From positions 480,001-544,000 of the forward strand of contig OZ240219.1 of assembly GCA_965197645.1 (NCBI GenBank): a stretch of DNA of 64,000 nt, written 5' to 3'. The stretch's first letter is position 1. Each line of letters starts with the position of its first letter. Below, in pieces: positions 41,238 through 57,030 of this stretch. A program made the translations under genes and the position numbers. Source of the stretch: Dehalococcoidia bacterium. GTDB lineage: Bacteria > Chloroflexota > Dehalococcoidia > Plut-88900. The notes below the pieces were generated by a model. The model was not told the DNA's origin and did not search any database. It was given only the letters and a program-made list of their open reading frames with translations.

Positions 41238-41936
41238 ATGTCCGCTTTAGCTGTAGACCGGCAGAAACAACCCTGGTTCCGCCGACTATTCCTGCCATCT
41301 TACAAGATATCCGAAGTCGCGCTGTATACCGGCGCTCATTCGAACACCATAGCGAATTGGCATTATCGGGGCAAACCGGTTTTGCCAGGGCGGGAACCCA
41401 AGAAACCCTTAAATTATCTGGAGTTGGTCGAGGTCGCTTTCGTCGCCTTTTTCCGGTCGCTAGGGTTGTCAATGAAGAGAATCCGGGCAGCGCGTGATTA
41501 TGTTGCGCAGAATTTCACGGCTGAATACCCGTTGGCGGAGAATCGGTTCAAGACCGAAGGTATGTACATCTTGATGGAATACCATAAGGTAGATCCCGAT
41601 CCACGGCTTGGGCAGATTATTGTTGCAGACCAGGGAGGACAACTGGCGTGGGCCGATTTCCTTGGGGACAAGTTTGAGTGCTTCGACTATGAATATGAGC
41701 TTGCCTTACGTTGGCATCCAGCAGGGAGGGATAGCCTTGTGGTGATCGACCCTCGGGTTTCATTCGGTGCCCCCATCGTCTACGGGCTCCCGACCTGGGT
41801 GGTCAAGGGTCGATGGAACGCCGGTGAATCGATAGATGAAATCTCTTATGACTTCGAGATTCCAAAAGAAGCCGTACAGGATGCGCTGGCTTTCGAGCGG
41901 GTTCCGATCAACAACGGAGATTCATCAACATTTTGA
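41238..41936 (+). CDS. VapB45-like antitoxin (HTH + DUF433)
   Basis: YKISEVALY..W HTH, LNYLELVE, IDPRVSFGAP..GESIDEI..DF..AVQDALAFE. Confidence 0.8.
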   Translation: MSALAVDRQKQPWFRRLFLPSYKISEVALYTGAHSNTIANWHYRGKPVLPGREPKKPLNYLELVEVAFVAFFRSLGLSMKRIRAARDYVAQNFTAEYPLAENRFKTEGMYILMEYHKVDPDPRLGQIIVADQGGQLAWADFLGDKFECFDYEYELALRWHPAGRDSLVVIDPRVSFGAPIVYGLPTWVVKGRWNAGESIDEISYDFEIPKEAVQDALAFERVPINNGDSSTF

Positions 41937-42343
41937 CGTTGTTTTGGGACAAGAACACCCCCAAGACTATCCCCCAGGTATTACTGAAGTTGAACCTTCC
42001 TATAGGTATCGAGCATTATCTCAAGCACTTTCCCCGTAGTGATTTCGAGCGTGAAAGAGGTGATGACAAATGGTTTTCTCAAGTTGCTGCTTGGGGATGG
42101 ACGACTATTGTCAGCCAGGATTACAACTTCCACACCAAACAGAATGAAAGATTCGCCTTGCGGCAGCATAACTTGGGATGCTTCTATCTTTGGGGCGCCA
42201 CAGAACCCAAGTGGGAAATACTTCGGTGCTTTGCACGAGCTTATGACAAGATTGTGAAAGCAGCGGAAACTACTCCTCGTCCCTTTGTTTTCCGGGTTAC
42301 CCGCATGGGCAACCTAGTACCAGTGGTGATCCCGGGACCGTAG
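41933..42343 (+). CDS. VapC45-like PIN toxin
   Basis: FWDKN, DDKWF...GWTTIVSQD..ERFAL; overlaps the antitoxin stop (TTGA). Confidence 0.75.
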   Translation: MTLFWDKNTPKTIPQVLLKLNLPIGIEHYLKHFPRSDFERERGDDKWFSQVAAWGWTTIVSQDYNFHTKQNERFALRQHNLGCFYLWGATEPKWEILRCFARAYDKIVKAAETTPRPFVFRVTRMGNLVPVVIPGP

Positions 42344-42468
42344 GTGCGCAAAACAGCCTATTGCCATACATGAACAGAACAGGACTTTCAACCTGGGGAA
42401 CTTTCAGGTGTTGACCAGATAGGACGACATCGACGGAAGCTCCCCAATCTCCTAAGGAGGCTTTGCAA

Positions 42469-43758
42469 ATGGACAAACAAGCGGACGTAGCAGTGATCGG
42501 CGGAGGTATCGCGGGCAGTGCCATCGCCTACCACCTGGCCAAACGTGATGCCAAGGTGGTTCTCCTCGAAAAGGGCCAGATCGGCGATGAGCAGTCCGGC
42601 CGGGCCTGGGGCTTCGTTCGCCAGCAGGGTCGCAGCCCGCGGGAACTGCACCTGATGATGGAGTGCAACAAGATGTGGCAGACCCTCTCCGAGGAGCTGA
42701 ATGCCGACATCGAGTGGGTGCAAGGCGGCAACCTGGCTGTCGCCTACGACGAGACCAGGATGGGGGAGCTGGAGGAGTGGTGCCGGATGGGTCAGGAGCA
42801 CGGCCTCGAAGTCGAGATGCTGACGGGCCAGCAGGTCCACGACATGGTCCCCCAGGCCAGCGGCGTCTTCGCCGGAGGCATGTACACCCCGTCCGATGGC
42901 CATGCCGAGCCTATCAAAGCCACCACGGCCCTCGCCAGGGCTGCCCAGGAGAACGGCGCCGAAGTTATCACCAACTGCGCCGTGGAGGGCATCGAGACCA
43001 GAAACGGCGAGGTCACGGGAGTGGTCACCGAACAGGGGTTGGTGAGGGCGCCTGTCGTTGTGTGTGCGGCCGGGGCATGGTCGCCCAAAGTGGCGAGAAT
43101 GGTCGGCCTCTCCCTGCCCTATCGAGTGGTCAGGGCTACCGTCACCGAGACCACCCCCACGGACCCGATCAGCGACGTAGGCTATTGGGCCCCCGGCCTA
43201 TCCTTCCGCCAGCGACCCAACGGCAGTCTGTACGTGGCCTCCGCCGCCCGGTCCGACTACGACGTGGACCTGGAGTCCTTCCGGGACATTGGCATGTTCT
43301 TGCCCAACTTCCTCAAGAACAGGCAGCATTTCAAGATAAACGTCGGCAATGAGCTGGTGCAGGACGTCCTTCGCTCCATGCCCTGGTCCCCGTCCAAAAA
43401 ACACCCGTTCGCCCACACGGTCGGGGTCGAGCCAACGCCGAATCAGAGCACCGTAACCACGACCATGCGAAGGTTCCACAAGCTGTTCCCCTCGCTGGAG
43501 TCCGTAGGCGTCCAGAGGATCTGGGCGGGAAGGATCGATGCCACCGCCGACGCCGTACCCATCATGGGCGAAGTCAACACGCCCAAGGGGTTCATCTTCG
43601 CCACCGGGTTCAGCGGACACGGCTTCGCCATGGGGCCGATAGTCGGAAAGGTCACCTCGGAGCTGATCCTGGATGGCAAGTCCTCGCTGGACCTCCATCC
43701 CCTGCGCTACAGTCGGTTCAAAGAGGGCGATATGGACCAACCCAAGGCCGTCCTCTAG
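42469..43758 (+). CDS. FAD-dependent oxidoreductase (DAO/sarcosine oxidase beta-like)
   Basis: VIGGGIAG, EQSGRAWG, WAGRID, TGFSGHGFAMGP. Confidence 0.92.
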   Translation: MDKQADVAVIGGGIAGSAIAYHLAKRDAKVVLLEKGQIGDEQSGRAWGFVRQQGRSPRELHLMMECNKMWQTLSEELNADIEWVQGGNLAVAYDETRMGELEEWCRMGQEHGLEVEMLTGQQVHDMVPQASGVFAGGMYTPSDGHAEPIKATTALARAAQENGAEVITNCAVEGIETRNGEVTGVVTEQGLVRAPVVVCAAGAWSPKVARMVGLSLPYRVVRATVTETTPTDPISDVGYWAPGLSFRQRPNGSLYVASAARSDYDVDLESFRDIGMFLPNFLKNRQHFKINVGNELVQDVLRSMPWSPSKKHPFAHTVGVEPTPNQSTVTTTMRRFHKLFPSLESVGVQRIWAGRIDATADAVPIMGEVNTPKGFIFATGFSGHGFAMGPIVGKVTSELILDGKSSLDLHPLRYSRFKEGDMDQPKAVL

Positions 43759-43889
43759 CCAGGCTTCTGCCCGTCATACTCCTTGGGCGTAGTCCAATCC
43801 GACGTGGCCGTCTGTCTCGAGCCGGTCGTACTCCTCCTCGGAGACGCCCAACAGCTCCTTGTACACATAGGGGTTGTGCTCACCCAGGC
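43507..43889 (+). repeat. 383-bp direct repeat, copy 1
   Basis: aligns with 45241-45623 at offset 1734. Confidence 0.92.
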
Positions 43890-44034
43890 TACGTTGGCTT
43901 AGAGGAATGCTTACCGCAGTTTAGGGGCATGCTTACCGTCTCGCCGAGATGCACCCACGTGACCTCCCGCCTGCATTGGCCACATACGAAGAGCGGTATA
44001 CCCTCGAAAGTACGATCCGAAAACTCGACTTGTG

Positions 44035-44304
44035 TCACGATGTGCAGGGGGTGTTTGGCCATTTCAGCACAACTCCTTTAGGGCCGCGTTGCTCGGGTAG
44101 GGCATACCGCCCCTCTACAATCCGTATTAGTTGACCTGCGTCTGTCATGTCAGAAGCAATACCGCGGACCGTGTGTTTGAACCGTACCGCCCTCCATGAG
44201 GACTTGCGCTGGGCTCTCTCGGAAAGGTCTATCATTGCTGCAATCTAGCCATCAATATCTGCCGGGGTCCGCCTCTCCGCCTGGGGCCAGAGTGCATTTT
44301 TCAT
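44035..44304 (-). pseudogene. possible decayed winged-helix (Mrr N-terminal-like) gene with in-frame TAG
   Basis: ATG 44304 in frame with ORF 44035-44235 across one TAG; IAAMIDLSE..RFKHTVR..MTDAGQL..EGRYAL loosely resembles Mrr_N. Confidence 0.3.
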
Positions 44305-44370
44305 GGCTTGACGCCAAAAGCCCGCCAGGCTTCGATTAGGCATCGATCAAGGCCTTCATGGGTGACACTT

Positions 44371-45171
44371 CTAACGGCACTCGGAGAAGTTCTGAGTCGC
44401 AAACACCGTCTCGTGTATCCACTTTCCTTCTTGAGACTCTTGAATGGCAATGCCAACTCCGATTCTACGGGCGAAAGGATCCAAGATGTTCTCTTTGTGC
44501 CCCGGGCTGTTCATCCATCCTTCGACCAAACCTTGTGCTAGGGTCTGTGAATCCTCGATATACTCTGCGGGCTTCCCAGTGTCCCAACTGCTTATCAGCC
44601 TGGGGAATTCATAGATATTCTCACTCAATCCGTACGTATAGGAACCGTCGGAGCGTTGGGCTTCGCAAGTGTACCCTGCGTCAAGTGCCCGGTCAGTCGG
44701 GTCCTTTCCCTGAATCTCGTGAAACATTCCGAACTGGACCATGTTCTCGCTGTGCCCCGTTGCTATGGCACCAATCGCGGGATCGTGGATCAGTTCGGGC
44801 ATATTAGCTGCCTTCCGTTCCTTGTTCGTATAATGCATGACCCATGTGGCGATCTCTCCCGCTTTCAACGGTTCGTCACCAGGGTATCGGATGATCTGTT
44901 CACGGTCCGATTCCGGTATCCCAAACCATACCACTGCCCCCACAATACCGGCTAGGAGAACCGCCATCAGTAAGAAAAGTGAGGTTGGGAACCCGGACTT
45001 TGACCGGTTTATAGGCTGCGGCCGACGCCGGGGATTTCGGGAAGGCGGAGAAGGTTGCGGGGAAAGTTCTGCTCCCGCTTTCACCATAGACAGTCGCCGT
45101 TGCGTACATTCCTGACAGGTGCAGTAAGGAGGGTGTTCGTCACGGTTCCACTCGTCTGCTCGCCTAGTCAA
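44371..45171 (-). CDS. membrane-anchored CAP (SCP-like) domain protein
   Basis: TNKER, IATGHSENM, SENI, GWMNSPGHKENIL, IGVG, ATQNF; one TM helix; N-terminal HPPYCTCQEC. Confidence 0.88.
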   Translation of the reverse strand: MTRRADEWNRDEHPPYCTCQECTQRRLSMVKAGAELSPQPSPPSRNPRRRPQPINRSKSGFPTSLFLLMAVLLAGIVGAVVWFGIPESDREQIIRYPGDEPLKAGEIATWVMHYTNKERKAANMPELIHDPAIGAIATGHSENMVQFGMFHEIQGKDPTDRALDAGYTCEAQRSDGSYTYGLSENIYEFPRLISSWDTGKPAEYIEDSQTLAQGLVEGWMNSPGHKENILDPFARRIGVGIAIQESQEGKWIHETVFATQNFSECR

Positions 45172-45240
45172 ATCCCTCCCTCGATGAATCTATGCTGGAG
45201 GTGGGATTGTACACCATCAATTCGAGGACTTCAAAACGTG

Positions 45241-45623
45241 GGCGTCCAGAGGATCTGGGCGGGAAGGATCGATGCCACCGCCGACGCCGTACCCATCATG
45301 GGCGAAGTCAACACGCCCAAGGGGTTCATCTTCGCCACCGGGTTCAGCGGACACGGCTTCGCCATGGGGCCGATAGTCGGAAAGGTCACCTCGGAGCTGA
45401 TCCTGGATGGCAAGTCCTCGCTGGACCTCCATCCCCTGCGCTACAGTCGGTTCAAAGAGGGCGATATGGACCAGCCCAAAGCCGTCCTCTAGCTGGGCTC
45501 CTGCCTGTTACACGCCCTGCGCGTAGTCGAATCCGACGTGCCCGTCTGTCTCGAGCCGGTCGTACTCCTCCTCGGAGACGCCCAACAGCTCCTTGTACAC
45601 ATAGGGGTTGTGCTCACCCAGGC
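45241..45623 (+). repeat. 383-bp direct repeat, copy 2 (includes orphan 3' fragment of the FAD oxidoreductase)
   Basis: aligns with 43507-43889. Confidence 0.92.
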
Positions 45624-46821
45624 ACGGCGCCGGATATCGGATGGTGGCATCGGCTCGACCGATCCGCCCTATCACACCGGGGTACCTGTAGGTGCCAGCC
45701 TCCCGATGAGTCACTTCCTGGAAGAAGCCCAGGGCCTCCAGCTGAGGGTCCGCCGATGTTTCGGCCTCATCCATTACGACCCCTGCCGCCACTCCCTCGC
45801 TCTGAAGCGCGTCCATCACCTCCCATGCGTCCCGTACAGCCGTCCACTGCTCGATGTGCCGGTCCAGCTCGTCCTGGTTCCGCCACCGGCTGAGCACGTT
45901 GTCGAACCGGGCGTCGGCGGCCCATTCAGGGTCGCACATGACGCGCCTGAGGCGCTCCCAGTCCTCATCCGAGGAGACGGAGATCGTGACCCATCTGTCG
46001 TCCCCCTTGCACCGGTAGCACCCCTGGGGCGCCATCGAAGTATCCCTGTTGCCCATCGCTGCCTGCACCCGCCCGTTCATCGTGTAGTCCAAGGTCATCT
46101 CGCTCAGGAGGGGAATCAGTCCCTCGGCGAGCGCCACGTCGATCAGCTGGCCCTGGCCGGTTATGTCCCGATGCCTGAGGGCCGCCACCGTCGAAAACGC
46201 GGCAGTTACACCTCCCATGGCATCCGAGGGGTACACGTCCTCTTTCATCGATTGGTCCACGTCCTCGTAACCCCGGACCCAGGTGTGTCCTATCAACCCC
46301 TCGATGTGGGATCCCCAGGCCCGGTAGCTACTGTAAGGCCCGGTCAGCCCGTAGGCCGGCATTCTGACCATTATCAGGTCAGGCCTGATCTTCGCCAGCG
46401 CGTCGTACCCCAGCCCGAGCCTGTCCATCAGGTCCGAGGAGTTGTTCTCGATCACTACGTCGGACACCTGCACCAGCTCTTTGAAACAGGCCGCTCCCTC
46501 GGGCCGTCTCAGATCGACCGTCACCCCCAGTCTGTTTCGACTGAAGCTGTTGAACAGTGCCGTACGGTTGTAGGGCCGCTCTCCCGGTTCCCACCCGGGA
46601 TAGGCCCACGACCAGATGCGCTGGTCATCCGGTACCGTCTTCGGATGGGGCGTCATACCCCTGTGGCCGGGATGAAAGAGCTGCCTTGATTCGACCAAGA
46701 TAACCTCGGCGCCCCAGTCGGCCAGCAGCAACGCGCCGTAAGGTCCAGCCCATGCCTGCGTCAGATCGATTACCCTGATTCCGCTCAGGGGCAACACGTC
46801 GCTCTCTCCCTTCGATGTCAT
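45508..46821 (-). CDS. class III CoA-transferase, Asp-containing subunit
   Basis: IDLTQAWAGP, GAEVILVES, YPSDAMGG, APCLGEHN. Confidence 0.9.
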   Translation of the reverse strand: MTSKGESDVLPLSGIRVIDLTQAWAGPYGALLLADWGAEVILVESRQLFHPGHRGMTPHPKTVPDDQRIWSWAYPGWEPGERPYNRTALFNSFSRNRLGVTVDLRRPEGAACFKELVQVSDVVIENNSSDLMDRLGLGYDALAKIRPDLIMVRMPAYGLTGPYSSYRAWGSHIEGLIGHTWVRGYEDVDQSMKEDVYPSDAMGGVTAAFSTVAALRHRDITGQGQLIDVALAEGLIPLLSEMTLDYTMNGRVQAAMGNRDTSMAPQGCYRCKGDDRWVTISVSSDEDWERLRRVMCDPEWAADARFDNVLSRWRNQDELDRHIEQWTAVRDAWEVMDALQSEGVAAGVVMDEAETSADPQLEALGFFQEVTHREAGTYRYPGVIGRIGRADATIRYPAPCLGEHNPYVYKELLGVSEEEYDRLETDGHVGFDYAQGV

Positions 46822-46824
46822 TTT

Positions 46825-48060
46825 CTAGATCACCCCGGTCTGCCGCAGCCGCTGCAGCTCCTTGGTACTAAACCCCAACACGCCGCAGTAGACCTCCCGG
46901 TTGTGCTGTCCCAGCGTCGGCGCCGGGCGGCTCACCTGCCACGGAGTCCCACTCATGATTCCCGGCCTGCCCGGCTGCCTCACCGGACCAGTAACCGGAT
47001 GCTCCACGTCGACCCATACCGAGCGGGCCCGGGTATGAGGATTCTCCACGCTGTCCGCCGGTGTGTTGATGGGGCCGGACAACAGTTTGTTGGCGTTGGC
47101 CGCCGCCACCACTTCCGACGTCGGGCGGCTCAACACCCACTCCAACACGTATTGCTGGAGAAGGAGCATGTTCTCGTCCCTGTATCTCTTGTCGGGGTCG
47201 TTGAACCTGGGGTCCGCCTTCAACTCGGGACGGCCTATCATGTCCAGGATCCCTTGACGCCTGCCGCCATAGGACGGGTTGAGCATGTTCACGTAACCAT
47301 CCGCGGTGGGGTAGATACCGACACCGAAGGTATAGCTAGGCGGCTGTCTGCGCGATGTCTCGCCCGTATATGCATATGCGCCCAGCATAGGCATCCACCT
47401 GTCGATGCTTCCGGCCTGGGTCTCCATAATCGATACGTCGACGTGCCGGCCTGCGTCGCGCCCTCCCAGACCGGCCAGCGCCACCGAAGTGAGCAACGCC
47501 GCCACCGCGCCCGTCTGGTAGAGGACTATGCGGCCGCCCATCTTGACCGGCGATCTGTCGGGGTGCCCCGTGACCCGGAGGGGCCCGCCCATGCCAAAGC
47601 TCACCAACTCCGACGATCTGTAGTCCCGGTAAGGCCCCTTCCGGCCGAAGTTGCTCACGGATGTCATCACTAGGCCCGGACTGATCTCTTTCAGGGCGTC
47701 GTACTCAATGCCCAGCCTCTCCATCACGCCGGGCCTGAAATTCTCCACCACCACGTCTGCACCGCTTACCATGCCCTTGAGTATGTCCACGCCCATCGAG
47801 GACTTGAGGTTCAGGGTGACACCCCTCTTGTCGGCGTTCAGGTAGCCGAACAGCCCGCTCTTTTCGGGGTGAGCGTCGTCCCGATGGAAAGGGCCGAGCC
47901 GTCTGGCCGGGTCTCCGCCCCAGGGCCGTTCCACCTTGATCACATCGGCGCCCATGCCGGCCAGCATCCGGGTGCAGAACGGACCTGCTTGATGATGGGT
48001 GAGGTCTACGACCATTATGTCGGAGTAGGGACGACTTACTGGAGGAAGCATCGCTTGCAA
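46825..48060 (-). CDS. class III CoA-transferase, Asp-less subunit
   Basis: GADVIKVE, NADKRG, ENFRPG, IVLYQTG at the catalytic Asp position, APTLGQHN; AGGAG SD before TTG. Confidence 0.9.
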   Translation of the reverse strand: MQAMLPPVSRPYSDIMVVDLTHHQAGPFCTRMLAGMGADVIKVERPWGGDPARRLGPFHRDDAHPEKSGLFGYLNADKRGVTLNLKSSMGVDILKGMVSGADVVVENFRPGVMERLGIEYDALKEISPGLVMTSVSNFGRKGPYRDYRSSELVSFGMGGPLRVTGHPDRSPVKMGGRIVLYQTGAVAALLTSVALAGLGGRDAGRHVDVSIMETQAGSIDRWMPMLGAYAYTGETSRRQPPSYTFGVGIYPTADGYVNMLNPSYGGRRQGILDMIGRPELKADPRFNDPDKRYRDENMLLLQQYVLEWVLSRPTSEVVAAANANKLLSGPINTPADSVENPHTRARSVWVDVEHPVTGPVRQPGRPGIMSGTPWQVSRPAPTLGQHNREVYCGVLGFSTKELQRLRQTGVI

Positions 48061-48068
48061 GCGGCTCC

Positions 48069-48116
48069 TGTCCCCGCCTTCTAGTACAGCTGCCCGATGA
48101 GTTGGGTGTTGCCCAT
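48069..48116 (+). repeat. 48-bp direct repeat, copy 1 (orphan 3' end of GrdE-like gene)
   Basis: matches 49579-49626 with 4 mismatches. Confidence 0.85.
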
Positions 48117-48143
48117 GTACACTCTCGACATACCGATGGAGGG

Positions 48144-48344
48144 TTAGTCTTCCTTAGCGTTGTACCGAGAGTCGGAGTCGTCTGGGGACATGGTGGTAAT
48201 CTTGATGGCATCGATGATTGCCCACACGCCAAGCCCACCAATGGTGAGCACCTTTGCGATGCCCTTCCCCGGCTGACCCAAGTAGAATTCGAGTGCGGGC
48301 CAGAAGATCCACGCCAAGACGATTGCGGTCGTCCTATTCTTCAT
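48144..48344 (-). CDS. TM2-domain small membrane protein
   Basis: KNRTTAIVLA..FYLG..GKGI..LTIGGLGVWAIID; GAGGAGG SD. Confidence 0.85.
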   Translation of the reverse strand: MKNRTTAIVLAWIFWPALEFYLGQPGKGIAKVLTIGGLGVWAIIDAIKITTMSPDDSDSRYNAKED

Positions 48345-48400
48345 CGTGATTCCTCCTCAGCCTTGCTAAATTCTGAATTTTGGTCGGCACCTATTTGTTA

Positions 48401-49189
48401 TTATAGGTCAAGTCCTCCTCCAGCTAGACGAACCAGGTCATCAGCAGACACGAGGTTTATCGGCTTGTCCCTGACAAAGCGCCTCACGCTGCTGGTGAAA
48501 CCTCCGGTGCAAACCAGGATGGCTGCATCTGCCTTGAAATGCACCATGCTCCCGTAGAGCGCCCTGACGATCTCCGGTGAAACCCGGCCTTTGTAGCCCT
48601 TGCTCTGGAGGACAGTGGTCTTCCCCTCCTTTTCCAGGAATAGATCGACTCCGTCATCCCCTGATACCGGCGTCGTGCTTACCTGGTAACCCAACCGCTT
48701 GTATAGCTGTGCCAGCTCCCGTTCCAGCTCAACGTCCTTCAAAGACATCCAGTAGTCATGACGTTTGCGAATCTCCGCCCGCTCAGCCTCTTGGCGCGCA
48801 TTCTCGGCTTCTCTAGCCCACCTCTCATACGCTGCCACATCTTCTTTGTACATCTCGACCCAGAAGGCAACGTGGCTTTTAACCAACTGCCGTTTATGGA
48901 ATGCCCCCCAGATCAACATGACAATGATCAAAGACATAAACAAAGCGACCACTCCGGGAAAAAAGGCGAGTACCCATTCTTCCTCAATGACGGCCCAGAC
49001 AGCGAGAGCTACCGCTCCGCAGTAGCTGACGGCGAAGACCGTTATTAGTGCTCTGTCGTAGTCGCCAGTATCAGATATGAAGTCATCATACTGCTTCTGT
49101 GTAAGCCCGTAGTCCTGAAGCACAGGTGCCTTACGGGGGACATCGGACGCCTTCTCGGGACTTACCCACGGGTCCGAACGTGTCATCAC
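48401..49189 (-). CDS. membrane-anchored Mrr-like (type IV) restriction endonuclease domain protein
   Basis: two TM helices, coiled segment, GYQV..TPVSGDDGVDL..LQSK..VRALYGS..CTGGFT. Confidence 0.85.
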   Translation of the reverse strand: MMTRSDPWVSPEKASDVPRKAPVLQDYGLTQKQYDDFISDTGDYDRALITVFAVSYCGAVALAVWAVIEEEWVLAFFPGVVALFMSLIIVMLIWGAFHKRQLVKSHVAFWVEMYKEDVAAYERWAREAENARQEAERAEIRKRHDYWMSLKDVELERELAQLYKRLGYQVSTTPVSGDDGVDLFLEKEGKTTVLQSKGYKGRVSPEIVRALYGSMVHFKADAAILVCTGGFTSSVRRFVRDKPINLVSADDLVRLAGGGLDL

Positions 49190-49207
49190 TCCTCCCGATA
49201 CGTCAGG

Positions 49208-49423
49208 TCAACGCAGCCTTCCTGAGTGTTCGTCCTCTTGGACGTCATCCACCAAGTAGTACCATGGGTAACCTTGCCAGAGTGCGGCATAGGCCTTGAC
49301 GCCAGCTTGGTCTAGATCGAACCCTGCATCCCTAATCATCCGGAAAAAGAGAACGAGCATGTCAGTGTCAACGAACCGCCCATCGATTATCATGTTTGGT
49401 CCATCAAGAATCGTATAGGGCAT
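49208..49423 (-). CDS. small hypothetical protein (71 aa)
   Basis: GAGGAGG SD before MPYTILDG. Confidence 0.5.
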   Translation of the reverse strand: MPYTILDGPNMIIDGRFVDTDMLVLFFRMIRDAGFDLDQAGVKAYAALWQGYPWYYLVDDVQEDEHSGRLR

Positions 49424-49578
49424 GACACCCCTCCTCGGTGGTTCTCTGGATAAATCGGTTGTCAAATAGTCGGCATTTTGCTGGGAATCTCTCCGCCGCC
49501 ACAGCCTTTGCAAACGCTTCCGCCTCTCGCTCACCACCACGTTATGTTCAGATTGTAGTACCACCGGAGGCGTGGAAG

Positions 49579-49626
49579 TGTCCCCGCCCTCTAGTACAGC
49601 CGCCCGATGAGCTGGGTTTTGCCCAT
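49579..49626 (+). repeat. 48-bp direct repeat, copy 2
   Basis: matches 48069-48116. Confidence 0.85.
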
Positions 49627-50898
49627 AGGGCCTGTCGCTCCGTACAGCTTCCTTACATCCAGCTCGATGGGGCCGGCGGCGGGCACGTCGGAGTTGAGGA
49701 TCCTGCTTCCCCCGATAACCCTATCGACGGCGGGCAGGTCTACGTTGAGGTTGATATCACCGGGGTTTACGATGGCGTCGGCCTCCGGGACCCAATAGGT
49801 GAACCCTGGATCGCCCCGGCTTGCCGTCATTTCCGCGGCCGCAAGTGCGGTGCTGATGCCCGCCTCCTCGCAGGCTCGAATGGTCAGCATGTGTCCCACC
49901 GAGGGATGCCCGTCGCTCAGCGGGGCCACCACCGCCCCGTCCACCTCCAGCCGGCGAGCGCTCTCCACTACCGCGTCGGCCTCCGCCTGCTTCTCCTCCA
50001 GGGTGTAGCCGAATCCGTTGAACAGTATCACGCCCCTGAAGTCCAGGTCCCGGCCGTGTCGTTGATACAGCTCCTCTATCAGGGCGTTGTTCTGGTACAT
50101 GTACGCCGCGCTTCTCCAGTTTGCGCCGAGCCAGAACAGGGAACCGGTCATCGCTCCATCCAGGACCTCGTTGGGATGCAGCGTACGTCCCGAGCTCTCA
50201 GAGGGGTCCATCGAGCCGTAGACGGCGGCGCCCATGGCCTGCATGACGTAGGCGATTTTCGGCAGCCCCTCGTCTACAGGCGTCAGCTCATACACCTGGG
50301 AGCTGTCTGGGGTCTGTCCCCTGACCGATTCGGCGATGAAGCTGGCCGCCTTATAGCACAACCCCCGCGTGGACTCCATCAGGGCCGAGGCCTCGTCGGT
50401 CTTGCTATCCACGACAAAATTGAGCCTGTCGACCGGGTCCAGTTTTTCACGTGCCGGTTTGGGTACGAAGGTCAGCACGATGTTTATGGTCTTGGAAAAT
50501 GGTGAGTAGGCCGCTCCGGGGCCGCTCATATCGATGACTGCCTCCCGAGCGTACCAGTACTCCTCTCCGGCCAAGGGCTCGGCTACACCCATGACTGCCA
50601 CACCGGCCAACCTGCCGGCCCTCCCTTGCCCAGCCTTTCCAACGGGACCCGTCACACCCGGAAAGAGCGCCTCGGGCCCCGAGTCTTTGAGCCGGGGCTC
50701 CACTACATCGAGAGCGTGGACTATCCTGACCGACTCCCCCGGCCGGGCGATATCGATCTCGATATCCGCAAACAGCGACCCTTCCAGTAGATGCCGGCGG
50801 AGCGTGTCTCGGTCGATCGTCAGCGTTCCGTCCTTTAGCTGTGTCTCAGGGCCAAAGACAGCGTCGCCGACATGGTGAGTCCCTACTTCTAACCGCAT
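49591..50898 (-). CDS. glycine/sarcosine/betaine reductase component B proprotein-like (GrdE/GrdG/GrdI family)
   Basis: MRLE, ARPGESVRI..LDVVEPR.K, IDMSGPGAAYSPFSKTIN, LHPNEVLDGA, QNN.LIEELY.RHG, PEADAIV. Confidence 0.85.
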   Translation of the reverse strand: MRLEVGTHHVGDAVFGPETQLKDGTLTIDRDTLRRHLLEGSLFADIEIDIARPGESVRIVHALDVVEPRLKDSGPEALFPGVTGPVGKAGQGRAGRLAGVAVMGVAEPLAGEEYWYAREAVIDMSGPGAAYSPFSKTINIVLTFVPKPAREKLDPVDRLNFVVDSKTDEASALMESTRGLCYKAASFIAESVRGQTPDSSQVYELTPVDEGLPKIAYVMQAMGAAVYGSMDPSESSGRTLHPNEVLDGAMTGSLFWLGANWRSAAYMYQNNALIEELYQRHGRDLDFRGVILFNGFGYTLEEKQAEADAVVESARRLEVDGAVVAPLSDGHPSVGHMLTIRACEEAGISTALAAAEMTASRGDPGFTYWVPEADAIVNPGDINLNVDLPAVDRVIGGSRILNSDVPAAGPIELDVRKLYGATGPMGKTQLIGRLY

Positions 50899-50917
50899 TG
50901 GCGCCCTTTCATATCCT

Positions 50918-52216
50918 TCAATGCAACCTGCCCCTCAACCTGCTCGGTCCCAGGGGGTTGGTTGCTCCGTAGATAGCCTTCAGCTGCAGCTCGAGCGGGC
51001 CTCCGGCTTCCTCGTTCGTGCCCAGCACCCGCGAGCCACCCACCACCTTATCAGCGGCGGGAAGGGAAACTACAACACTATCGTCACCGGGAATCGCTAT
51101 CGCGTCGGCCTCGGGCACCAGGTGACTGAAGCCGGGATCATCGTGGGTCGTGGAGAGCTGGCCCGCACCGATCACCGTCCTGATCCCGACTCGTTCGCAC
51201 TTCTGGCACACCGTCATGTGGGTAACGCTGCTGTGTCCGGGCCGGATGGGGGTGAGGACCGCTCCGTCGGCGCCCAGCATACGAGCAATCTTCACGACGC
51301 TATCGCTCTCCCGCTCTTTGTCCTCCAGCGTTCCGCCGTACCCGTTGCACAGGATCACTCCCAGGAAGTTCAGGTCCACTCCGTGCCGGCTGTATAGCTC
51401 ATCGACCACGGCGTTGTTCTGGTAGAAGTAGGTCGCGTCTCGAAGTGCACCGTCCACCCAGCGAAAGGAGTTGACCACCGCTCCGTCCATCAGCTCGTTG
51501 GGATGCAGCAGGACACCGACGTCGTTGGTAAAGTCGTGGGAGCCGTACACGCCGGCAGCGATATTGGTGTGTATGTACACGATGCGGGGCAGTTCCGCCG
51601 GGACCGTCGACAGCTCGTAGTGCCGCACCGAGTCCGGCTCCAGACCCTCGACAGCCGACGCCAGGTATTCCGCCGCCTTCAGGCACATCCACCGGGCGGC
51701 CCTGGTCCTGGCCGCAGACTCTTCCGTCTGGGAACCCACCATGTAGTTGGTCATTTCGGAGGTCTCCTCGTCCTGGCCACTCCTGAACACCAGGACCAGG
51801 TTTATGGTGCTGGAAAAGGGAGTGAGATCGGCGCCGGGCCCCCACATGTCCACCACGGCCTCTCGCCCGTACCAGGCGGTCTCCCCGGCGAAGGGCTCCG
51901 AGGCGCCAACCACCGCCACACCTCCCAATCGATGCGTTCTCCCTTCCCCGACCGTCCCCGGCCTACCCAGCACCCCGGGAAACACGCATCCGGGCCCCGA
52001 TACCTTCACCCTGGGCTCGGCCACGTCCAGCGCGTGGACTATCCGGGTCCGCTCTCCCGGTCGAACGATCTCGACGTCTACGGAGTCGAAGAGCGTCCCC
52101 GCCGAGATGTGCTCCAGCAGACCGTCCTCGCTGAGGCGAAGCGTCCCGTTGGTATACTCGGTCGTGTCGGAAAATAGCAGCTCGCGGACGGGAAAGGAGC
52201 CCAGTTCCAGCCTCAT
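50918..52216 (-). CDS. second GrdE-family proprotein-like paralogue
   Basis: MRLELG, RPGERTRI..LDVAEPRVK, VDMWGPGA..PFS, LHPNELMDGA; GGAGGG SD before ATG 52216. Confidence 0.85.
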   Translation of the reverse strand: MRLELGSFPVRELLFSDTTEYTNGTLRLSEDGLLEHISAGTLFDSVDVEIVRPGERTRIVHALDVAEPRVKVSGPGCVFPGVLGRPGTVGEGRTHRLGGVAVVGASEPFAGETAWYGREAVVDMWGPGADLTPFSSTINLVLVFRSGQDEETSEMTNYMVGSQTEESAARTRAARWMCLKAAEYLASAVEGLEPDSVRHYELSTVPAELPRIVYIHTNIAAGVYGSHDFTNDVGVLLHPNELMDGAVVNSFRWVDGALRDATYFYQNNAVVDELYSRHGVDLNFLGVILCNGYGGTLEDKERESDSVVKIARMLGADGAVLTPIRPGHSSVTHMTVCQKCERVGIRTVIGAGQLSTTHDDPGFSHLVPEADAIAIPGDDSVVVSLPAADKVVGGSRVLGTNEEAGGPLELQLKAIYGATNPLGPSRLRGRLH

Positions 52217-52278
52217 CCGACGCCCTCCACTCCTCGAGTAAAGCTGGCGAATTATAGCACGCATCCTTCGTCCTTTTG

Positions 52279-52307
52279 TTGACAGCCTTCCGCGCCCTGA
52301 TTAACAT
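52279..52307 (+). promoter_or_regulatory. sigma70-type promoter
   Basis: TTGACA 52279-84, 17 bp, TAACAT 52302-07; ATG at 52319. Confidence 0.65.
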
Positions 52308-52318
52308 TGAGACGCCCT

Positions 52319-52960
52319 ATGCCGGTTCGACTCAAAATCTACTCGGACTATCTCTGACCCTGGTGCTACATCGTGGCCGTGCGCCTGCGTCGAGTGGAGG
52401 AACAGTACGGGGACTCGGTGGTCACTGAGTGGATCGGCTATCCGCTGGTGCCCGGCGAGGTTCCCAGCAGGCCAATCACCCAGCACAGCATCGACTCCAG
52501 AGCCGAGGCCGACCAGGAGGAGCCTCACGCCCTTTTCGGCGAGTGGGACGTCTCGCAGAACTACCCCAACACCAGCATGCGGGCCCTTGAAGCGGCCAAG
52601 TGTGCGGCGCTGCAGGGCGACGATGCCTTCGACAGATATCACCGGCAGCTGTTCCTCTCCTTCTTCGCCGAAGGCAACAACATCAGCGACCCGATGGTGC
52701 TGGTCCAGATCGCCCAGGCGGCGGGCCTGAACGTCGAGGCCTTCGCCAGTGAGTTCGCCGGCTGCTTCCAGCGAGAGGCAGTCCTGGACGATTTCAGGCA
52801 AGCCGTGGTCGACAACGACATCAATGCACTGGGCCTGCCCGTAGTCATTGCCAACGACGAATTTCGGATTGTGGGCGCCGCTCCCGCCGAGTCCTACTCC
52901 CAACTGATAGACCACTACCTCTCCAAACAGGTGTCCAGTGACCCCGCCAACTCGAGGTAA
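52319..52960 (+). CDS. DsbA/FrnE family selenoprotein (UxxC)
   Basis: MPVRLKIYSDYL-TGA-PWCY in frame with ORF 52373; TGA 52355-57 occupies the first Cys of D-x-x-C-P-W-C-Y; later GLP..I.GA motif. Confidence 0.8.
52355..52400 (+). promoter_or_regulatory. putative bacterial SECIS hairpin
   Basis: CGUGGC-[CGUGC]-GCCUGCG stem with bulged U; G-containing loop starts about 21 nt after UGA; folded by eye. Confidence 0.5.
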
Positions 52961-52966
52961 CCCCTA

Positions 52967-54178
52967 ATGTTCAACATGGCCCTGGAAGGCGTTCGGGTCC
53001 TGGACCTGACCCACTACATAGCCGGGCCCTACAGCACCAAGCTCCTGGCCGACTACGGCGCCGACGTCATCAAGATAGAGCGGCCGGGGAGCGGCGACCC
53101 GGCGCGCAGGCTGGGCCCCTTCCACGACGACTACCCTCACCACGAAAAGAGCGGCCTCTTCCTTCACCTGAACGCCAACAAACGCGGCGTCACCCTCAAC
53201 CTCAAGGTGCCCTCGGGCCAGGTCATGCTCAAGGAGCTGGTCAAGGAGACCGATATCCTGATCGAAAACTTCAGCCCCCGGGTGATGCCTTCCTGGGGCC
53301 TGGACTACGATACCCTTGTCAAGATCAATCCCAAGCTGGTGGTGACTTCCATCAGCAACTTCGGTCAGACGGGCCCTTATCGAGACTACAAGGCTTCGGA
53401 GCTGGTCCTGTTCGGCATGGGCGGCGAAATGCACTCCATCGGCATGGAGGGCCGAGCGCCGATGAAGGAGGGGGGCAGCGTGGTCCAGTTCGAGGCCGGC
53501 ACCGTCGCCGCCGACGCCACCATGGGGGCCCTGTTCGCCGCCGAACGGGACGGAGAGGGGGAACACATAGACATCTCCATTATGGAGACCCAGCTGGCAG
53601 GCGTCGATCGCAGGCAGGCCTCCCTCTTGGCCTATCAGTACGCCGGTGAGCTGAGCCTGCAGGTCCCCGGCATGCCCCTGGGCATCGCATCCGGCACCTT
53701 CCCCTGCAAGGACGGCTACATAGAGATCGCCGGCGGCGGGCCGCTCTTTGCCAGGATCATCAAGATGCTGGGGGAGCCCGATTTCCTCCAGGACCCGAAA
53801 TGGCGGGACCCCGCCCTGGACCGAAACCCGGAGCTGGTGGAGGAGTTCAACGCCTACTTCATCGGTTGGCTGATGGACCGGACCAAAGAGGAGATATGGG
53901 AGGCGGGGCAAAAGGCCCGGGTCCTCTGCGGACCCCTCTACACCACCGCCGATCTACTGAAGGACGCCCACTTCGCTGGCCGGGGCTTCTGGGACGAGCT
54001 TGAGCATCCCTTTACCGGCCCAGTCAGCTACCCGGGCGCTCCCTTCCGCATGTCCGAGACGCCTCGGCAGGTACGACGCCCCGCGCCCCAGTTAGGCGAG
54101 CACAACGAGCAGGTGTACGGCCACATCGGCTACTCAAAGGACGATCTTGTGCGACTCAGAGAGCGAGGAGTGATCTAG
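52967..54178 (+). CDS. class III CoA-transferase, Asp-less subunit
   Basis: LEGVRVLDL, GADVIKIE, NANKRG, VVQFEAG at the Asp position, APQLGEHN. Confidence 0.9.
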   Translation: MFNMALEGVRVLDLTHYIAGPYSTKLLADYGADVIKIERPGSGDPARRLGPFHDDYPHHEKSGLFLHLNANKRGVTLNLKVPSGQVMLKELVKETDILIENFSPRVMPSWGLDYDTLVKINPKLVVTSISNFGQTGPYRDYKASELVLFGMGGEMHSIGMEGRAPMKEGGSVVQFEAGTVAADATMGALFAAERDGEGEHIDISIMETQLAGVDRRQASLLAYQYAGELSLQVPGMPLGIASGTFPCKDGYIEIAGGGPLFARIIKMLGEPDFLQDPKWRDPALDRNPELVEEFNAYFIGWLMDRTKEEIWEAGQKARVLCGPLYTTADLLKDAHFAGRGFWDELEHPFTGPVSYPGAPFRMSETPRQVRRPAPQLGEHNEQVYGHIGYSKDDLVRLRERGVI

Positions 54179-54179
54179 C

Positions 54180-55484
54180 ATGCCCAAGCTTCCCCTCGAA
54201 GGAGTCAGGGTCCTGGACCTGTGCATCGTGTGGGCCGGGCCCTTCGGCACCCAGATCCTCGCCGATCTCGGTGCGGAGGTGATCAAGGTCGAGAACGTCC
54301 ATCACTGGCAGACCATGGCCCGTGGCTTCATGGCTCGCCCACCCAAAGCCTGGCTCGACTCCCAGGTCCCCATGGTCGGCGCCTACCCCGACAAGGAGCC
54401 GGGGGAACGCCCATGGAACCGGTGTCCCACCTTCAACAACGTGCTTCGCAACAAGAAGAGCATGACCGTCGATATTCGCAATGCACAGGGGATGGACATA
54501 CTGAAGCGATTGATCCAGGCCAGCGACGTGGTCTACGAAAACAACGTCACCGAGACCATGGACAAGCTGGGCATTACCTACGACTTTCTCAAGGAGATCA
54601 ACCCCGAGATAATCTTCATCCGGGTCCCCGCCTACGGCAACGAGGGACCATATCGGAACTTCCGCGCTCTGGGCGTCCACCTGGAGTCGGTCATCGGCCA
54701 CTCCCTGCTGCGAGGCTATACGGACTCCGATCCTTCGACCAACAGCGGCGTCTTCATGGGCGATTACGCCGCCGGCGCCATGGGAGCCTTCGCCGTGATG
54801 GCCGCCCTCTACCACAGAAAGAGGACGGGCAAAGGTCAGCTAATCGAACTGGCCCAGGCGGAGACGGCCATAGGTTTCCTGGCCGACGCCGTAACGGACT
54901 ATACCCTCAACGGTAGGGTCCAGAGCACGCTGGGCAACCGGGACATGTTCGGGTCCGCCCCCTGCGGAGCGTTCCGCGCCAGCGGCGATAACCGATGGAT
55001 CGCTATCACCGTCACCAACGACACCGAGTGGAACGGCCTGTGCGACGCCATGGGCAACCCGGACTGGTGCAAAGAGGACCGGTTCGGGGACCAGTTCAGC
55101 CGGTGGCAGAACATCGACGAGCTGGAGGGCCTGCTCAACGAGTGGACCTCTCAGCACGACACATACGACCTCTTTCACCTGCTGCAGAAGCACGGTGTCC
55201 CCTCCGGGCCCATCATGCATGCCGCCGACGCCTACTCCGACCCGCACGTCGAGGAGCGGGACTTCTTCAAAGAACTGACCCACGCCGATGCCGGCACCCA
55301 CCGGTATCCGGGCCTGATGTTCAAGATGTCCCGGTCTCCGGTGGAGGTCAAGACCCCGCCGGCCCGCCTCGGCGAGCACAACGAGTACGTCTACAAAGAG
55401 GTCCTCAAGTTCTCCGACGAAGAGTACGCCCAGCTGGAGAGCGACGGACACATCGGCACGGACTTCGATCCCGATATTCCATAG
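54180..55484 (+). CDS. class III CoA-transferase, Asp-containing subunit
   Basis: WAGPF, GAEVIKVE, RNKKS, FMGDYAAG, ARLGEHN. Confidence 0.9.
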   Translation: MPKLPLEGVRVLDLCIVWAGPFGTQILADLGAEVIKVENVHHWQTMARGFMARPPKAWLDSQVPMVGAYPDKEPGERPWNRCPTFNNVLRNKKSMTVDIRNAQGMDILKRLIQASDVVYENNVTETMDKLGITYDFLKEINPEIIFIRVPAYGNEGPYRNFRALGVHLESVIGHSLLRGYTDSDPSTNSGVFMGDYAAGAMGAFAVMAALYHRKRTGKGQLIELAQAETAIGFLADAVTDYTLNGRVQSTLGNRDMFGSAPCGAFRASGDNRWIAITVTNDTEWNGLCDAMGNPDWCKEDRFGDQFSRWQNIDELEGLLNEWTSQHDTYDLFHLLQKHGVPSGPIMHAADAYSDPHVEERDFFKELTHADAGTHRYPGLMFKMSRSPVEVKTPPARLGEHNEYVYKEVLKFSDEEYAQLESDGHIGTDFDPDIP

Positions 55485-55599: not shown

Positions 55600-56499
55600 G
55601 TGGCGAACAAAGAGCGAGTCGGAGTTGTAGGACTGGGCATCATGGGCAAACCGATGGCCGCCAACCTCATGAAGGCCGGATTCTCGGTGACGGTCTATAA
55701 CCGGACCGCCGCCAAAGCCGAGGAGCTCCGCTCGGAGGGCGCCAACGTAGCATCATCTCCGAAGGAGGTCGCCGAGAACAGCGATGTCACCATAACCATG
55801 GTAAGCGACTCCCCCGACGTTGAAGAGGTCATCCTCGGCCCCAACGGCGTCATCCACGGGGTCGGCCGGGGCGCAGTGGTCATAGATATGAGCACCATCT
55901 CTCCCCAGGTCACCCAGACCATAGCGGCGGAGCTGTCCAGCAAGGGCGGGCACATGCTCGATGCCCCGGTCAGCGGCGGCTCGTGGGGAGCGATCCAGGG
56001 CACCCTCTCCATCATGGTGGGCGGCGAGAAGGAGACCTTTGACAGGTGCATGCCCGTCTTCGAGGCCATGGGCAAGAACATAATCTACACCGGGGGCCAC
56101 GGCATGGGCCAGGTGACCAAGCTGGTGAACCAGATAATGGTCGGCGGCACGCTGGCCGCCGTCTGCGAGGGCCTGCTGTTCGGGGCCAAGGCCGGCATCG
56201 ATCTCAACCCGGTGTTTCAGGCTGTAACCGGAGGAGCGGCCAACTCCTGGCAGCTGGAGAACCTGGGCTCTCGCATTCTGAAGAGAGACTTCGACCCCGG
56301 TTTCATGATCAAGCTGATGCACAAGGACCTCAGGCTCATCACCGAAGCCGCCCGAGATATGGAGCTGCCGCTACCGCTCATCTCCCTCGCCCAGCAGTTC
56401 TACCACGTCCTTCAGCACGACGGCCTCGGCGAAGAGGGTACCCAAGCCTACGTCAAGGCCCTGGAGAAGCTGGCCGGGGTCCAGGTCCAAGCCGACTAG
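55600..56499 (+). CDS. beta-hydroxyacid dehydrogenase (2-hydroxy-3-oxopropionate reductase / HIBADH family)
   Basis: GLGIMG, DMSTISP, DAPVSGG, KLVNQ, KDL. Confidence 0.92.
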   Translation: MANKERVGVVGLGIMGKPMAANLMKAGFSVTVYNRTAAKAEELRSEGANVASSPKEVAENSDVTITMVSDSPDVEEVILGPNGVIHGVGRGAVVIDMSTISPQVTQTIAAELSSKGGHMLDAPVSGGSWGAIQGTLSIMVGGEKETFDRCMPVFEAMGKNIIYTGGHGMGQVTKLVNQIMVGGTLAAVCEGLLFGAKAGIDLNPVFQAVTGGAANSWQLENLGSRILKRDFDPGFMIKLMHKDLRLITEAARDMELPLPLISLAQQFYHVLQHDGLGEEGTQAYVKALEKLAGVQVQAD

Positions 56500-56540: not shown

Positions 56541-57030
56541 GTCGTTGCGAGCAAGGGGGGAGCTCGTCCTGTGGGAGGTCGAAGAGAGCGAAGCAATCTG
56601 GGGCGGAGGGGTATACAACTCTGCCGGATGATGACCTAACCTGAGATTGCCACGCCCCGACTTCGTCGGGTCTCGCAATGACGAAGGTACGGATCCAGAC
56701 GTTGCCCTCTCTTCTGTCATGCTATGGGTGCAGGGCCCGCCCTGCCTCCGGTAGGGGGTCTGGGGGATGTGCCCCCAGATACGAAACGTCTCAGGGCGGG
56801 CGGGTGGGCAGAATCCCCTTTGGTGGGGAGGGGTATACAACTCTGCCGGATGATGACCTAACCTGAGATTGCCACGCCCCGACTTTGTCGGGCCTCGCAA
56901 TGACGAAGGTACGGATCCAGACGTTGCCCTCTCTTCTGTCATGTTATGGGTGCAGGGCCCGCCCTGCCTCCGGTAGGGGGTCTGGGGGATGTGCCCCCAG
57001 ATACGAAACGTCTCAGGGCGGGCGGGTGGG
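56541..57030 (+). repeat. composite palindromic repeat with 204-bp tandem duplication (period 222)
   Basis: 56605-56808 vs 56827-57030 nearly identical; contains AGATTGCCACG..CTCGCAATGAC and family A GGGGGATGTGCCCCCA modules. Confidence 0.88.

Follow-up and report, generated by a model that had tools for sequence, protein, structure and literature searches.

Introduction

To our knowledge, almost all known reductases for glycine, sarcosine, betaine, and proline come from fermenting Firmicutes, where they occur as fixed sets of subunits. The stretch of DNA analyzed here, which is called the window, comprises 64,000 nucleotides (positions 480001-544000) of the single-contig genome of a Dehalococcoidia bacterium (3.21 Mb, 61% G+C, 94% complete). 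It encodes two GrdE-like proteins, E1 and E2, and their genes form an operon with those of two family-III CoA-transferases, CoAT_C and CoAT_D. The pairing of E1 and E2 with a CoA-transferase is conserved within one family of uncultured Dehalococcoidia, and the selenoprotein partners are encoded elsewhere in the genome. Positions at this locus are those of the window, and positions elsewhere are those of the genome.

Several described systems resemble parts of this locus. GrdI, the partner of the selenoprotein GrdH, has the PF09338 domain and the HPNExxDG motif and lacks a Cys at the cleavage position, as do E1 and E2. GrdI is reportedly not processed (Andreesen and co-workers). In contrast to GrdI, E1 and E2 have no adjacent gene of the GrdB/H type, form a diverged pair or triplet, are cotranscribed with a CoA-transferase, and lack the SGN(Y/C) stretch. 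GrdHI is named as a betaine reductase in PMC9321204. The proproteins GrdE and GrdG of glycine and sarcosine reductase share their domain and length with E1 and E2, and the sarcosine reductase protein GrdG is the best NCBIfam match of both. However, the scores for E1 and E2 (203.9 and 230 bits) are far under the cut-off of 780, Cys242 is missing, and there is no adjacent GrdB-type gene. It is the Cys242 position that gives rise to the pyruvoyl group in GrdE of C. difficile, as stated in PMC9908766. The FarE model scores 140.3 and 110.9 bits on E1 and E2, compared to a cut-off of 675.

The GrdABCDE system of Clostridia has counterparts in this genome, which possesses GrdA with an in-frame TGA, three GrdB proteins, GrdC, and tRNA-SeC. 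On the other hand, GrdD was not found, no GrdE paralogue has the Cys, and in a sister genus the genes are dispersed. The CoA-transferases can be compared to BbsEF, the succinyl-CoA:(R)-benzylsuccinate CoA-transferase (9fn0), which also consists of adjacent paralogous subunits, one of them with Asp. The identity to BbsEF is modest, no bbs beta-oxidation genes are nearby, the partners here are GrdE-like, and the heteromer is a predicted one. Among the papers listed in the literature search, none links GrdE-like proteins with CoA-transferases or GrdE with Chloroflexi, and one mentions both SAR202 and glycine reductase.

The E1-E2-CoAT_C-CoAT_D operon

The functional core of the locus is the operon E1-E2-CoAT_C-CoAT_D, which is broken in this strain by a defense-like cassette. 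Its features are listed in the order of transcription.

50918-52216, minus strand (ORF open up to 52264): GrdE-like protein E1, PF09338 match; the likely start is Met17 (MRLELG), as in homologues
49591-50898, minus strand: GrdE-like protein E2, PF09338 match, about 49-50% identical to E1
49579-49626: 48-nt repeat, copy located at the genuine 3' end of E2
48117-49578, minus strand: inserted strain-specific cassette, absent from contigs of runs X3, X5, and X7
49208-49564, minus strand: 118-aa ORF in the cassette, no family match
48401-49189, minus strand: membrane-anchored protein with an Mrr_cat nuclease domain in the cassette (PF04471, 4.1e-23)
48069-48116: 48-nt repeat, second copy, duplicating the 3' end of E2, with its stop 20 nt ahead of the CoAT_C start
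46825-48060, minus strand: CoAT_C, family-III CoA-transferase (PF02515), Asp-less subunit type, Leu at the CaiB Asp169 column
45508-46821, minus strand: CoAT_D, family-III CoA-transferase (PF02515), Asp kept at the CaiB Asp169 column

The PF09338 (Gly_reductase) domain is full-length in both GrdE-like proteins (1e-83 and 1e-90), and the direct repeats D2, D6, and D7, at a spacing of 1327, are among the evidence for E2. The genes are closely spaced, with 19 nt from the E1 stop to the E2 start and 3 nt from the CoAT_C stop to the CoAT_D start. The distance from the duplicated E2 stop to the TTG start of CoAT_C (48060) is exactly 20 nt, the value given in an initial annotation made from the sequence alone. 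That annotation had also described two GrdE-like genes, two Asp-less/Asp pairs of CoA-transferase genes, a DsbA-like gene with a UGA codon, and a cassette inserted into the operon between 48-nt repeats, and the family searches and contig comparisons reported here bear out all of these elements.

The order of the core genes is conserved across three genera. E1-E2(-E2')-CoAT_C-CoAT_D is found in 11 genomes of one Dehalococcoidia family: this genome, all nine loci of the sister genus (g2), and G171 from genus g4, two contigs of which agree with this order over the length that they cover. In the nine g2 loci a dehydrogenase, CoAT_B, and CoAT_A are encoded on one strand and E1, E2, CoAT_C, and CoAT_D on the other. 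Four g2 genomes have a third GrdE-like copy, one of which is broken. The g2 orthologues are 44-79% identical to the window proteins, and the gap between E2 and CoAT_C is about 20-50 nt in the relatives. With E1 as the query, a match at E <= 1e-60 was obtained in 15 of 401 genomes from the class and in 10 of the 11 other members of the family (f1). CoA-transferase-linked GrdE was not found outside this family in a genome scan (68 loci) or a metagenome scan (80 loci), both of which used short peptide patterns and may miss relatives. In the metagenome scan the best identity was 45%; GrdB was present in 61 loci, and a distant CoA-transferase (29%) lay 3 kb away in two.

The genes CoAT_A, CoAT_B, and the dehydrogenase belong to a divergent operon, which in the window has the following features.

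52319-52960, plus strand: Sec-containing DsbA-like protein (PF01323), TGA at 52355-52357, first gene of the divergent operon
52967-54178, plus strand: CoAT_A (PF02515), Asp-less subunit type, Gln at the CaiB Asp169 column
54180-55484, plus strand: CoAT_B (PF02515), Asp-bearing subunit, Asp at the CaiB Asp169 column
55600-56499, plus strand: HIBADH-family dehydrogenase from Pfam searches, near 2-hydroxy-3-oxopropionate reductase (332.4 bits)

One related genome separates the two operons. G083, a single contig that is 94% complete, has no PF09338 gene, no full-length GrdB, and no clear CoAT_D orthologue, and it keeps an isolated operon made up of CoAT_A (69%), CoAT_B (73%), and the dehydrogenase (81%). 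CoAT_A-CoAT_B-dehydrogenase is thus an autonomous neighboring module, and the unit that co-varies is E1-E2-CoAT_C-CoAT_D. Counting the divergent CoA-transferase pair as part of the system, as had been done, is not supported by this genome.

The GrdE-like proteins

E1 and E2 lack the cysteine from which a pyruvoyl group would be formed. After HPNExxDGA, E1 reads VVNSFRW and E2 reads MTGSLFW, as had been noted before, while canonical homologues read HPNE..DGA(I/V)VSGN-C with the Cys at residue 242. The SGN(Y/C) stretch is wholly absent from E1 and E2. The Cys is missing from all six PF09338 paralogues of the genome, including three beside grdB. A survey of 94 PF09338 ORFs from 68 genome loci and this genome found SGN-C in only six loci. 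Most GrdB-linked homologues surveyed have Tyr at the Cys position; many read SGN-Y, for example those of L093, L098, L101, and L102, which are recorded as Dorea, Coprococcus, or Lachnospiraceae. Every CoA-transferase-linked copy surveyed in the Dehalococcoidia family also lacks the Cys. Since the Cys is missing from six of six paralogues and from most GrdB-linked homologues, its loss is the rule rather than a peculiarity of E1 and E2.

A pyruvoyl group derived from Ser had been suggested instead. Orthologues have Ala, Phe, Leu, or Tyr in place of this Ser, so a Ser-derived group is unlikely and the proteins are probably of the non-pyruvoyl kind.

The phylogeny places E1 and E2 close to a protein encoded beside grdB. 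In a tree of 88 rows, a single clade with an SH-aLRT value of 100 unites the E1 clade of 11 rows, the E2 clade of 13 rows, and the paralogue 2854763, which adjoins GrdB. Most of the family-wide conservation is retained: of the 52 columns with at least 90% conservation across 53 other members of the family, 45 are kept in the 24 CoA-transferase-linked rows. A CxxC motif (VCQKCE) is present in E1 at residues 353-356 (window 51199-51210). It is kept as C-Q/R-x-C-E in 24 of the 25 rows of the E1 and E2 clade, including the 2854763 paralogue; in the window's own E2 the first position is Ile. The motif is also present in some GrdB-linked PF09338 members, and canonical SGN-C GrdE proteins mostly keep only its first Cys.

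Structure searches identified no solved relative of E1 that is informative. The AF2 model is a confident one, with a pLDDT of 86.2 and a pTM of 0.89. A PDB sequence search with E1 gave no matches at E up to 1, and Foldseek against the PDB gave none at E <= 0.001. The best whole-chain VIA-align wide match had a Z of 8.8 and covered only residues 220-448 approximately, a generic flavodoxin/Rossmann-like region from which no function can be inferred. The ESM Atlas search returned only PF09338 clusters. E1 and E2 are probably diverged duplicates of the substrate-binding subunit of the selenium-dependent glycine/sarcosine/betaine reductases, in its non-pyruvoyl, GrdI-like form.

The CoA-transferases

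The four CoA-transferases appear to form two heteromeric pairs with one catalytic subunit each. All match PF02515 (7e-93 to 8e-102), and no NCBIfam equivalog cut-off is reached by any of them or by E1 or E2. At the column of E. coli CaiB Asp169, which we take to be the catalytic residue, Asp is present in CoAT_B and CoAT_D, whereas CoAT_A has Gln and CoAT_C has Leu. Among the g2 orthologues, both Asp-less subunits carry Gln at this column and the two remaining subunits carry Asp, in agreement with the Asp-less/Asp pairing proposed earlier. The best solved matches of CoAT_A and CoAT_B are chains A and B, respectively, of benzylsuccinate CoA-transferase 9fn0 (7e-59 each), and chain A of 9fn0 also has no Asp at this column of the alignment. 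The Asp pattern and the chain matches therefore suggest that both pairs (A/B and C/D) are heteromers of this known architecture. Family-III CoA-transferases have undergone a very large expansion in this genome, with about 54 such loci, including 17 adjacent pairs, in 3.2 Mb.

The dehydrogenase encoded downstream of CoAT_B scores 332.4 bits against TIGR01505 (2-hydroxy-3-oxopropionate/tartronate semialdehyde reductase), which is below the cut-off of 340.75.

Grd genes elsewhere in the genome

The genome encodes most of a glycine reductase-type system outside the window. PF09338 is represented by six genes and full-length grdB by three, and there is one grdA, which has an in-frame TGA, and one grdC equivalog (658.7 bits compared to a cut-off of 450). 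Whole-genome family searches place no GrdA, GrdB, GrdC, or PF00085 thioredoxin in the window, as had been stated before. The PF07355 (GrdB) matches lie at 256545, 401324, and 2856093, along with two weak ones, and none is in the window. The locus at 253-261 kb holds grdA and grdC in the gene order grdE-grdE-grdB-grdC-grdA. The GrdB gene at 2856087, here GrdB_C, adjoins the PF09338 paralogue 2854763, which is the closest paralogue of E1 and E2. Neither a CoA-transferase nor a GrdE match lies within about 10 kb of two small GrdB-like ORFs at 2775899 and 2793834. Searches with PF02504 and NF040747 found no grdD in this single contig (94% complete), nor in four g2 genomes (G137, G102, G020, and G187) or in G024. 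A complete set of GrdA, GrdB, GrdC, and GrdD is therefore absent from the genome, GrdD being the only member missing. GrdC is present in both this genome and G137.

In the sister genus the grdB genes are dispersed. None of the full-length grdB genes of five g2 genomes has a PF09338 gene within 15 kb. G137 has an orthologue of GrdB_C (64% identical) with no adjacent GrdE gene, and its other grdB sits with grdC. The sole members of the matching GrdE clade in G137 are the CoA-transferase-linked genes. Among 401 genomes sampled from the class, 42 carry PF09338, and every one of these also carries PF07355; it is full-length in 40 and only partial in G012 and G326. The clade membership of E1 and E2, the dispersed grdB genes of g2, and this co-occurrence make pairing with GrdB in trans plausible.

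Inserted cassettes

The cassette within the operon is absent from close relatives. The two 48-nt direct repeats agree at 44 of 48 positions, and each consists of the last 11 codons and stop of E2 and a further 12 nt. Three runs from studies P2 and P3 (X3, X5, and X7) have Logan contigs that join position 48065/48066 to 49583, with only five or six other letters in between, and so lack the approximately 1.5-kb cassette between the repeats. Among 10 runs listed as carrying matching sequence, none was of RNA. The X3 contig of 6852 nt spans 45237-48065 and 49583-53050, and the cassette-free contigs continue through E2, E1, and the DsbA region. Cassette-free operons thus occur naturally in close relatives. 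The Mrr_cat protein of the cassette has weak PADLOC matches to PDC-S02 and the ZorD nuclease domain.

Other insertions are found in the same region. Three of the nine g2 loci have an insert of 1.4-2 kb between CoAT_C and CoAT_D (L047:6705-8060, L049:6307-8093, and L052:13660-15446). Both inserts that were scanned (L047 and L049) encode an N6/N4 DNA methyltransferase, and those of L049 and L052 have a further ORF of about 200 aa with no family. The region has been invaded repeatedly by small cassettes, with different defense-type cassettes entering the same operon in different lineages. In G137 a pair of PIN-domain genes (L142:7917-8701) lies inside a GrdE-like triplet that matches the grdE-grdE-grdB-grdC-grdA locus of this genome; the G137 triplet is unlinked from grdB.

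Genes for hydantoinase A, an amidohydrolase, and a DAO-family flavoprotein converge on CoAT_D in this genome, and a second cassette is found at this end of the locus.

42463-43758, plus strand: DAO-family flavoprotein (full-length DAO gene), last gene of the convergent hydantoinase-amidohydrolase-DAO operon
43827-45236, minus strand: second inserted cassette, flanked by 324-nt repeats
44371-45171: CAP-domain gene in the second cassette
45237-45560: duplicated DAO 3' fragment, a repeat copy

The 324-nt direct repeats (43503-43826 and 45237-45560) are 95.7% identical, duplicate the DAO 3' end, and flank the CAP-domain gene, which is the same insertion signature as that of the 48-nt repeats around the Mrr cassette. 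The X3 strain probably lacks the CAP-domain cassette also, because its contig match begins exactly at 45237. The DAO-like flavoprotein noted in the initial annotation is a real and conserved neighbor, since the three convergent genes are present in nine of nine g2 loci. A DUF433 and PIN_10 pair, likely a toxin-antitoxin system (41238-42343), is located between the amidohydrolase and DAO genes, which are directly adjacent in g2. At the other end of the locus, 3' of the dehydrogenase gene, are two 180-nt direct repeats (56599-56778 and 56821-57000) with 97% identity and a spacing of 222, at which contigs of other samples pile up and rearrange.

The selenocysteine-containing DsbA-like protein

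The DsbA-like ORF matches PF01323 (1.2e-10) and reads YSDYL-U-PWC, with an in-frame TGA at the first position of the CxxC. Its prediction as a selenoprotein is sound, because 34 of 38 matches to this family in 12 genomes carry an in-frame TGA. The predicted hairpin after the UGA (-18.9 kcal/mol) is not distinctive, with a z-score of 0.28 relative to shuffled sequences. The genome has a tRNA-SeC gene at 214533-214631, and the best thioredoxin (PF00085) match of the genome (214783-215079) is 150 nt from it.

The DsbA-like gene is part of the cluster in this genus only. It is present at the locus in close relatives from two other studies, and no DsbA match was found in the cluster in the ten other genomes that carry it. 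Each genome has three or four matches to the family, and the other copies are not beside GrdE or CoA-transferase genes. Further Sec-containing paralogues in this genome are at 545312-545932 (44% identity, 1.3 kb past the end of the window) and 2211908-2212516 (31%). Both the DsbA-like gene and the Mrr cassette are later insertions.

Possible functions of the operon

The favored explanation, which is a tentative one, is that E1 and E2 add a further GrdI-like specificity module to the organism's own Grd reductase, working in trans with GrdB, GrdA, and GrdC and coupled to a CoA-transferase of the BbsEF type. We infer that E1 and E2, as a putative heteromer, would bind a carboxylic acid with an alpha substituent and hand it over to a GrdB selenoprotein whose gene lies elsewhere. 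The likeliest partner would be GrdB_C (2856087), since the adjoining gene is the closest paralogue of E1 and E2. GrdA and GrdC from the 253-261 kb locus would complete the reduction. CoAT_C/D, of the benzylsuccinate CoA-transferase type with an Asp-bearing, catalytic D subunit and an Asp-less C subunit, would convert either the substrate or the product that is released into its CoA thioester and back, and this activity would tie the reductase to CoA-dependent catabolism. In favor of the proposal are the conserved gene order, the clade shared with the GrdB-adjacent paralogue, the 45 retained columns, the co-occurrence of PF09338 with PF07355, the g2 grdB genes that have no GrdE neighbor, the selenium machinery of the genome, the match of the transferases to 9fn0, and the fact that G083 lacks PF09338, full-length GrdB, and a clear CoAT_D orthologue all at once.

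Several observations weigh against this proposal. None of the 11 genomes has grdB, grdA, or grdC in the cluster, and PF09338 genes outnumber full-length grdB genes, by 6 to 3 in this genome and by 7-9 to 2 in g2. The conserved columns G334, G341, D348, and E369 are changed in the E1/E2 clade, and 20 columns are specific to it. The co-occurrence counts come entirely from close kin and are not independent. With about 54 family-III CoA-transferase-like genes in the genome, 17 pairs of them adjacent, proximity to one is weak evidence by itself. We know of no step for a family-III CoA-transferase in known Grd chemistry. In addition, g2 has another GrdB-less GrdE pair, located among genes for an acyl-CoA synthetase, a CoA-transferase, an acyl-CoA dehydrogenase, and two SDRs, which hints at GrdB-free chemistry of CoA esters. 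Near this pair (L072:10004-12754) there are also luciferase-like monooxygenases, a subunit of a molybdenum hydroxylase, a 2-hydroxyacid dehydrogenase, and two NIPSNAP genes.

Some of these points lead to another possible explanation, nearly as likely as the favored one, in which the proteins do not depend on GrdB. E1 and E2, perhaps as a heteromer using the conserved CxxC, would no longer belong to the selenoprotein complex and would act directly on a CoA thioester made and recycled by CoAT_C/D, in which case the PF09338 fold would have a new activity in the CoA-dependent catabolism of an organic acid. The operon conserved with CoAT_C/D and lacking any Grd partner in the cluster, the excess of PF09338 genes over grdB, the second GrdB-less pair among acyl-CoA genes, the substitutions of the clade (including N344 to H and the loss of D348), and the CxxC in 24 of 25 clade rows are consistent with it. 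However, PF09338 is found without PF07355 in no genome of the class sample, most family-wide conserved columns are kept, the closest paralogue adjoins GrdB, the CxxC occurs in some GrdB-linked members too, and we know of no member of the PF09338 family that functions alone. A further reading, which is unlikely, places the reductive cleavage itself at the level of the CoA thioester. CoAT_C/D would load an alpha-substituted acid from acetyl-CoA, and E1/E2, with the CxxC and a selenol or thiol donor (GrdB/GrdA, or the Sec-containing DsbA in this genus), would cleave the C-X bond and release acetyl-CoA directly. The acetyl-CoA would prime a further round, bypassing protein C, for which GrdD is missing. 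If true, the Grd family would gain a new catalytic logic, and a CoA-transferase would have its first role there.

It is also unlikely that the GrdE-like genes lie beside the CoA-transferases by chance, with the shared order reflecting common descent within the family. The abundance of CoA-transferase loci, the restriction of the architecture to one family, and the tolerance of the region for cassettes would fit with this. On the other hand, the gene order is kept although the proteins have diverged to 44-59% identity, the gaps are operon-like in this genome (19-20 nt) and between E2 and CoAT_C in the relatives, and G083, which lacks E1 and E2, also lacks a clear CoAT_D orthologue yet keeps CoAT_A and CoAT_B. 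The least probable explanation is the one in the initial annotation, which read the locus as a self-contained, non-canonical system for reductive C-N cleavage in which the Sec-containing DsbA replaces GrdA or thioredoxin and the CoA-transferases replace GrdC and GrdD. It may hold in this genus only. The DsbA-like gene is the first gene of the CoAT_A operon, ending 6 nt ahead of CoAT_A, and is kept in close relatives from two other studies; the CxxC of E1 could be reduced by a thiol or selenol oxidoreductase; and grdD was not found in this genome or in four of four g2 genomes. However, grdA, with its TGA, three full-length grdB genes, and grdC are encoded elsewhere in the same genome, so the locus does not appear self-contained. 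CoAT_A and CoAT_B, which are cotranscribed with the DsbA-like gene, persist in G083 without any GrdE. The DsbA-like gene is absent from the cluster in all ten other genomes and belongs to a scattered, mostly Sec-bearing family with three or four matches per genome, and it is therefore not a conserved substitute for GrdA or thioredoxin. The earlier interpretation thus stands in part: the insertion into an operon, the linkage of the GrdE pair to CoA-transferases in 11 genomes, the Asp pairing, the missing Cys, and the DAO neighbor were upheld, and the self-containment, the role of the Sec-containing DsbA, and the Ser-derived pyruvoyl group were not. That annotation would have been countered by a canonical grd set elsewhere together with loss of the linkage to CoA-transferases; grdA, grdB, and grdC are present elsewhere and grdD was not found, while the linkage is conserved.

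The Dehalococcoidia family differs from organisms with fixed subunit sets in several respects. It has six to nine copies of the substrate-binding subunit compared to two or three full-length selenoprotein B genes, the pyruvoyl Cys is missing from the six copies of this genome and from the CoA-transferase-linked copies surveyed, GrdD was not found in this genome or in four g2 genomes, and one GrdE-like pair is fixed in an operon with a predicted heteromeric CoA-transferase. Whether or not GrdB is involved, the operon is a concrete set of four genes for expression and assay. If E1 and E2 do not use GrdB, the PF09338 fold would have a second activity. If they still use GrdB, as the favored explanation proposes, one selenoprotein would serve several swappable specificity modules, and the reductive cleavage of amine or onium compounds would be tied to the catabolism of CoA esters.

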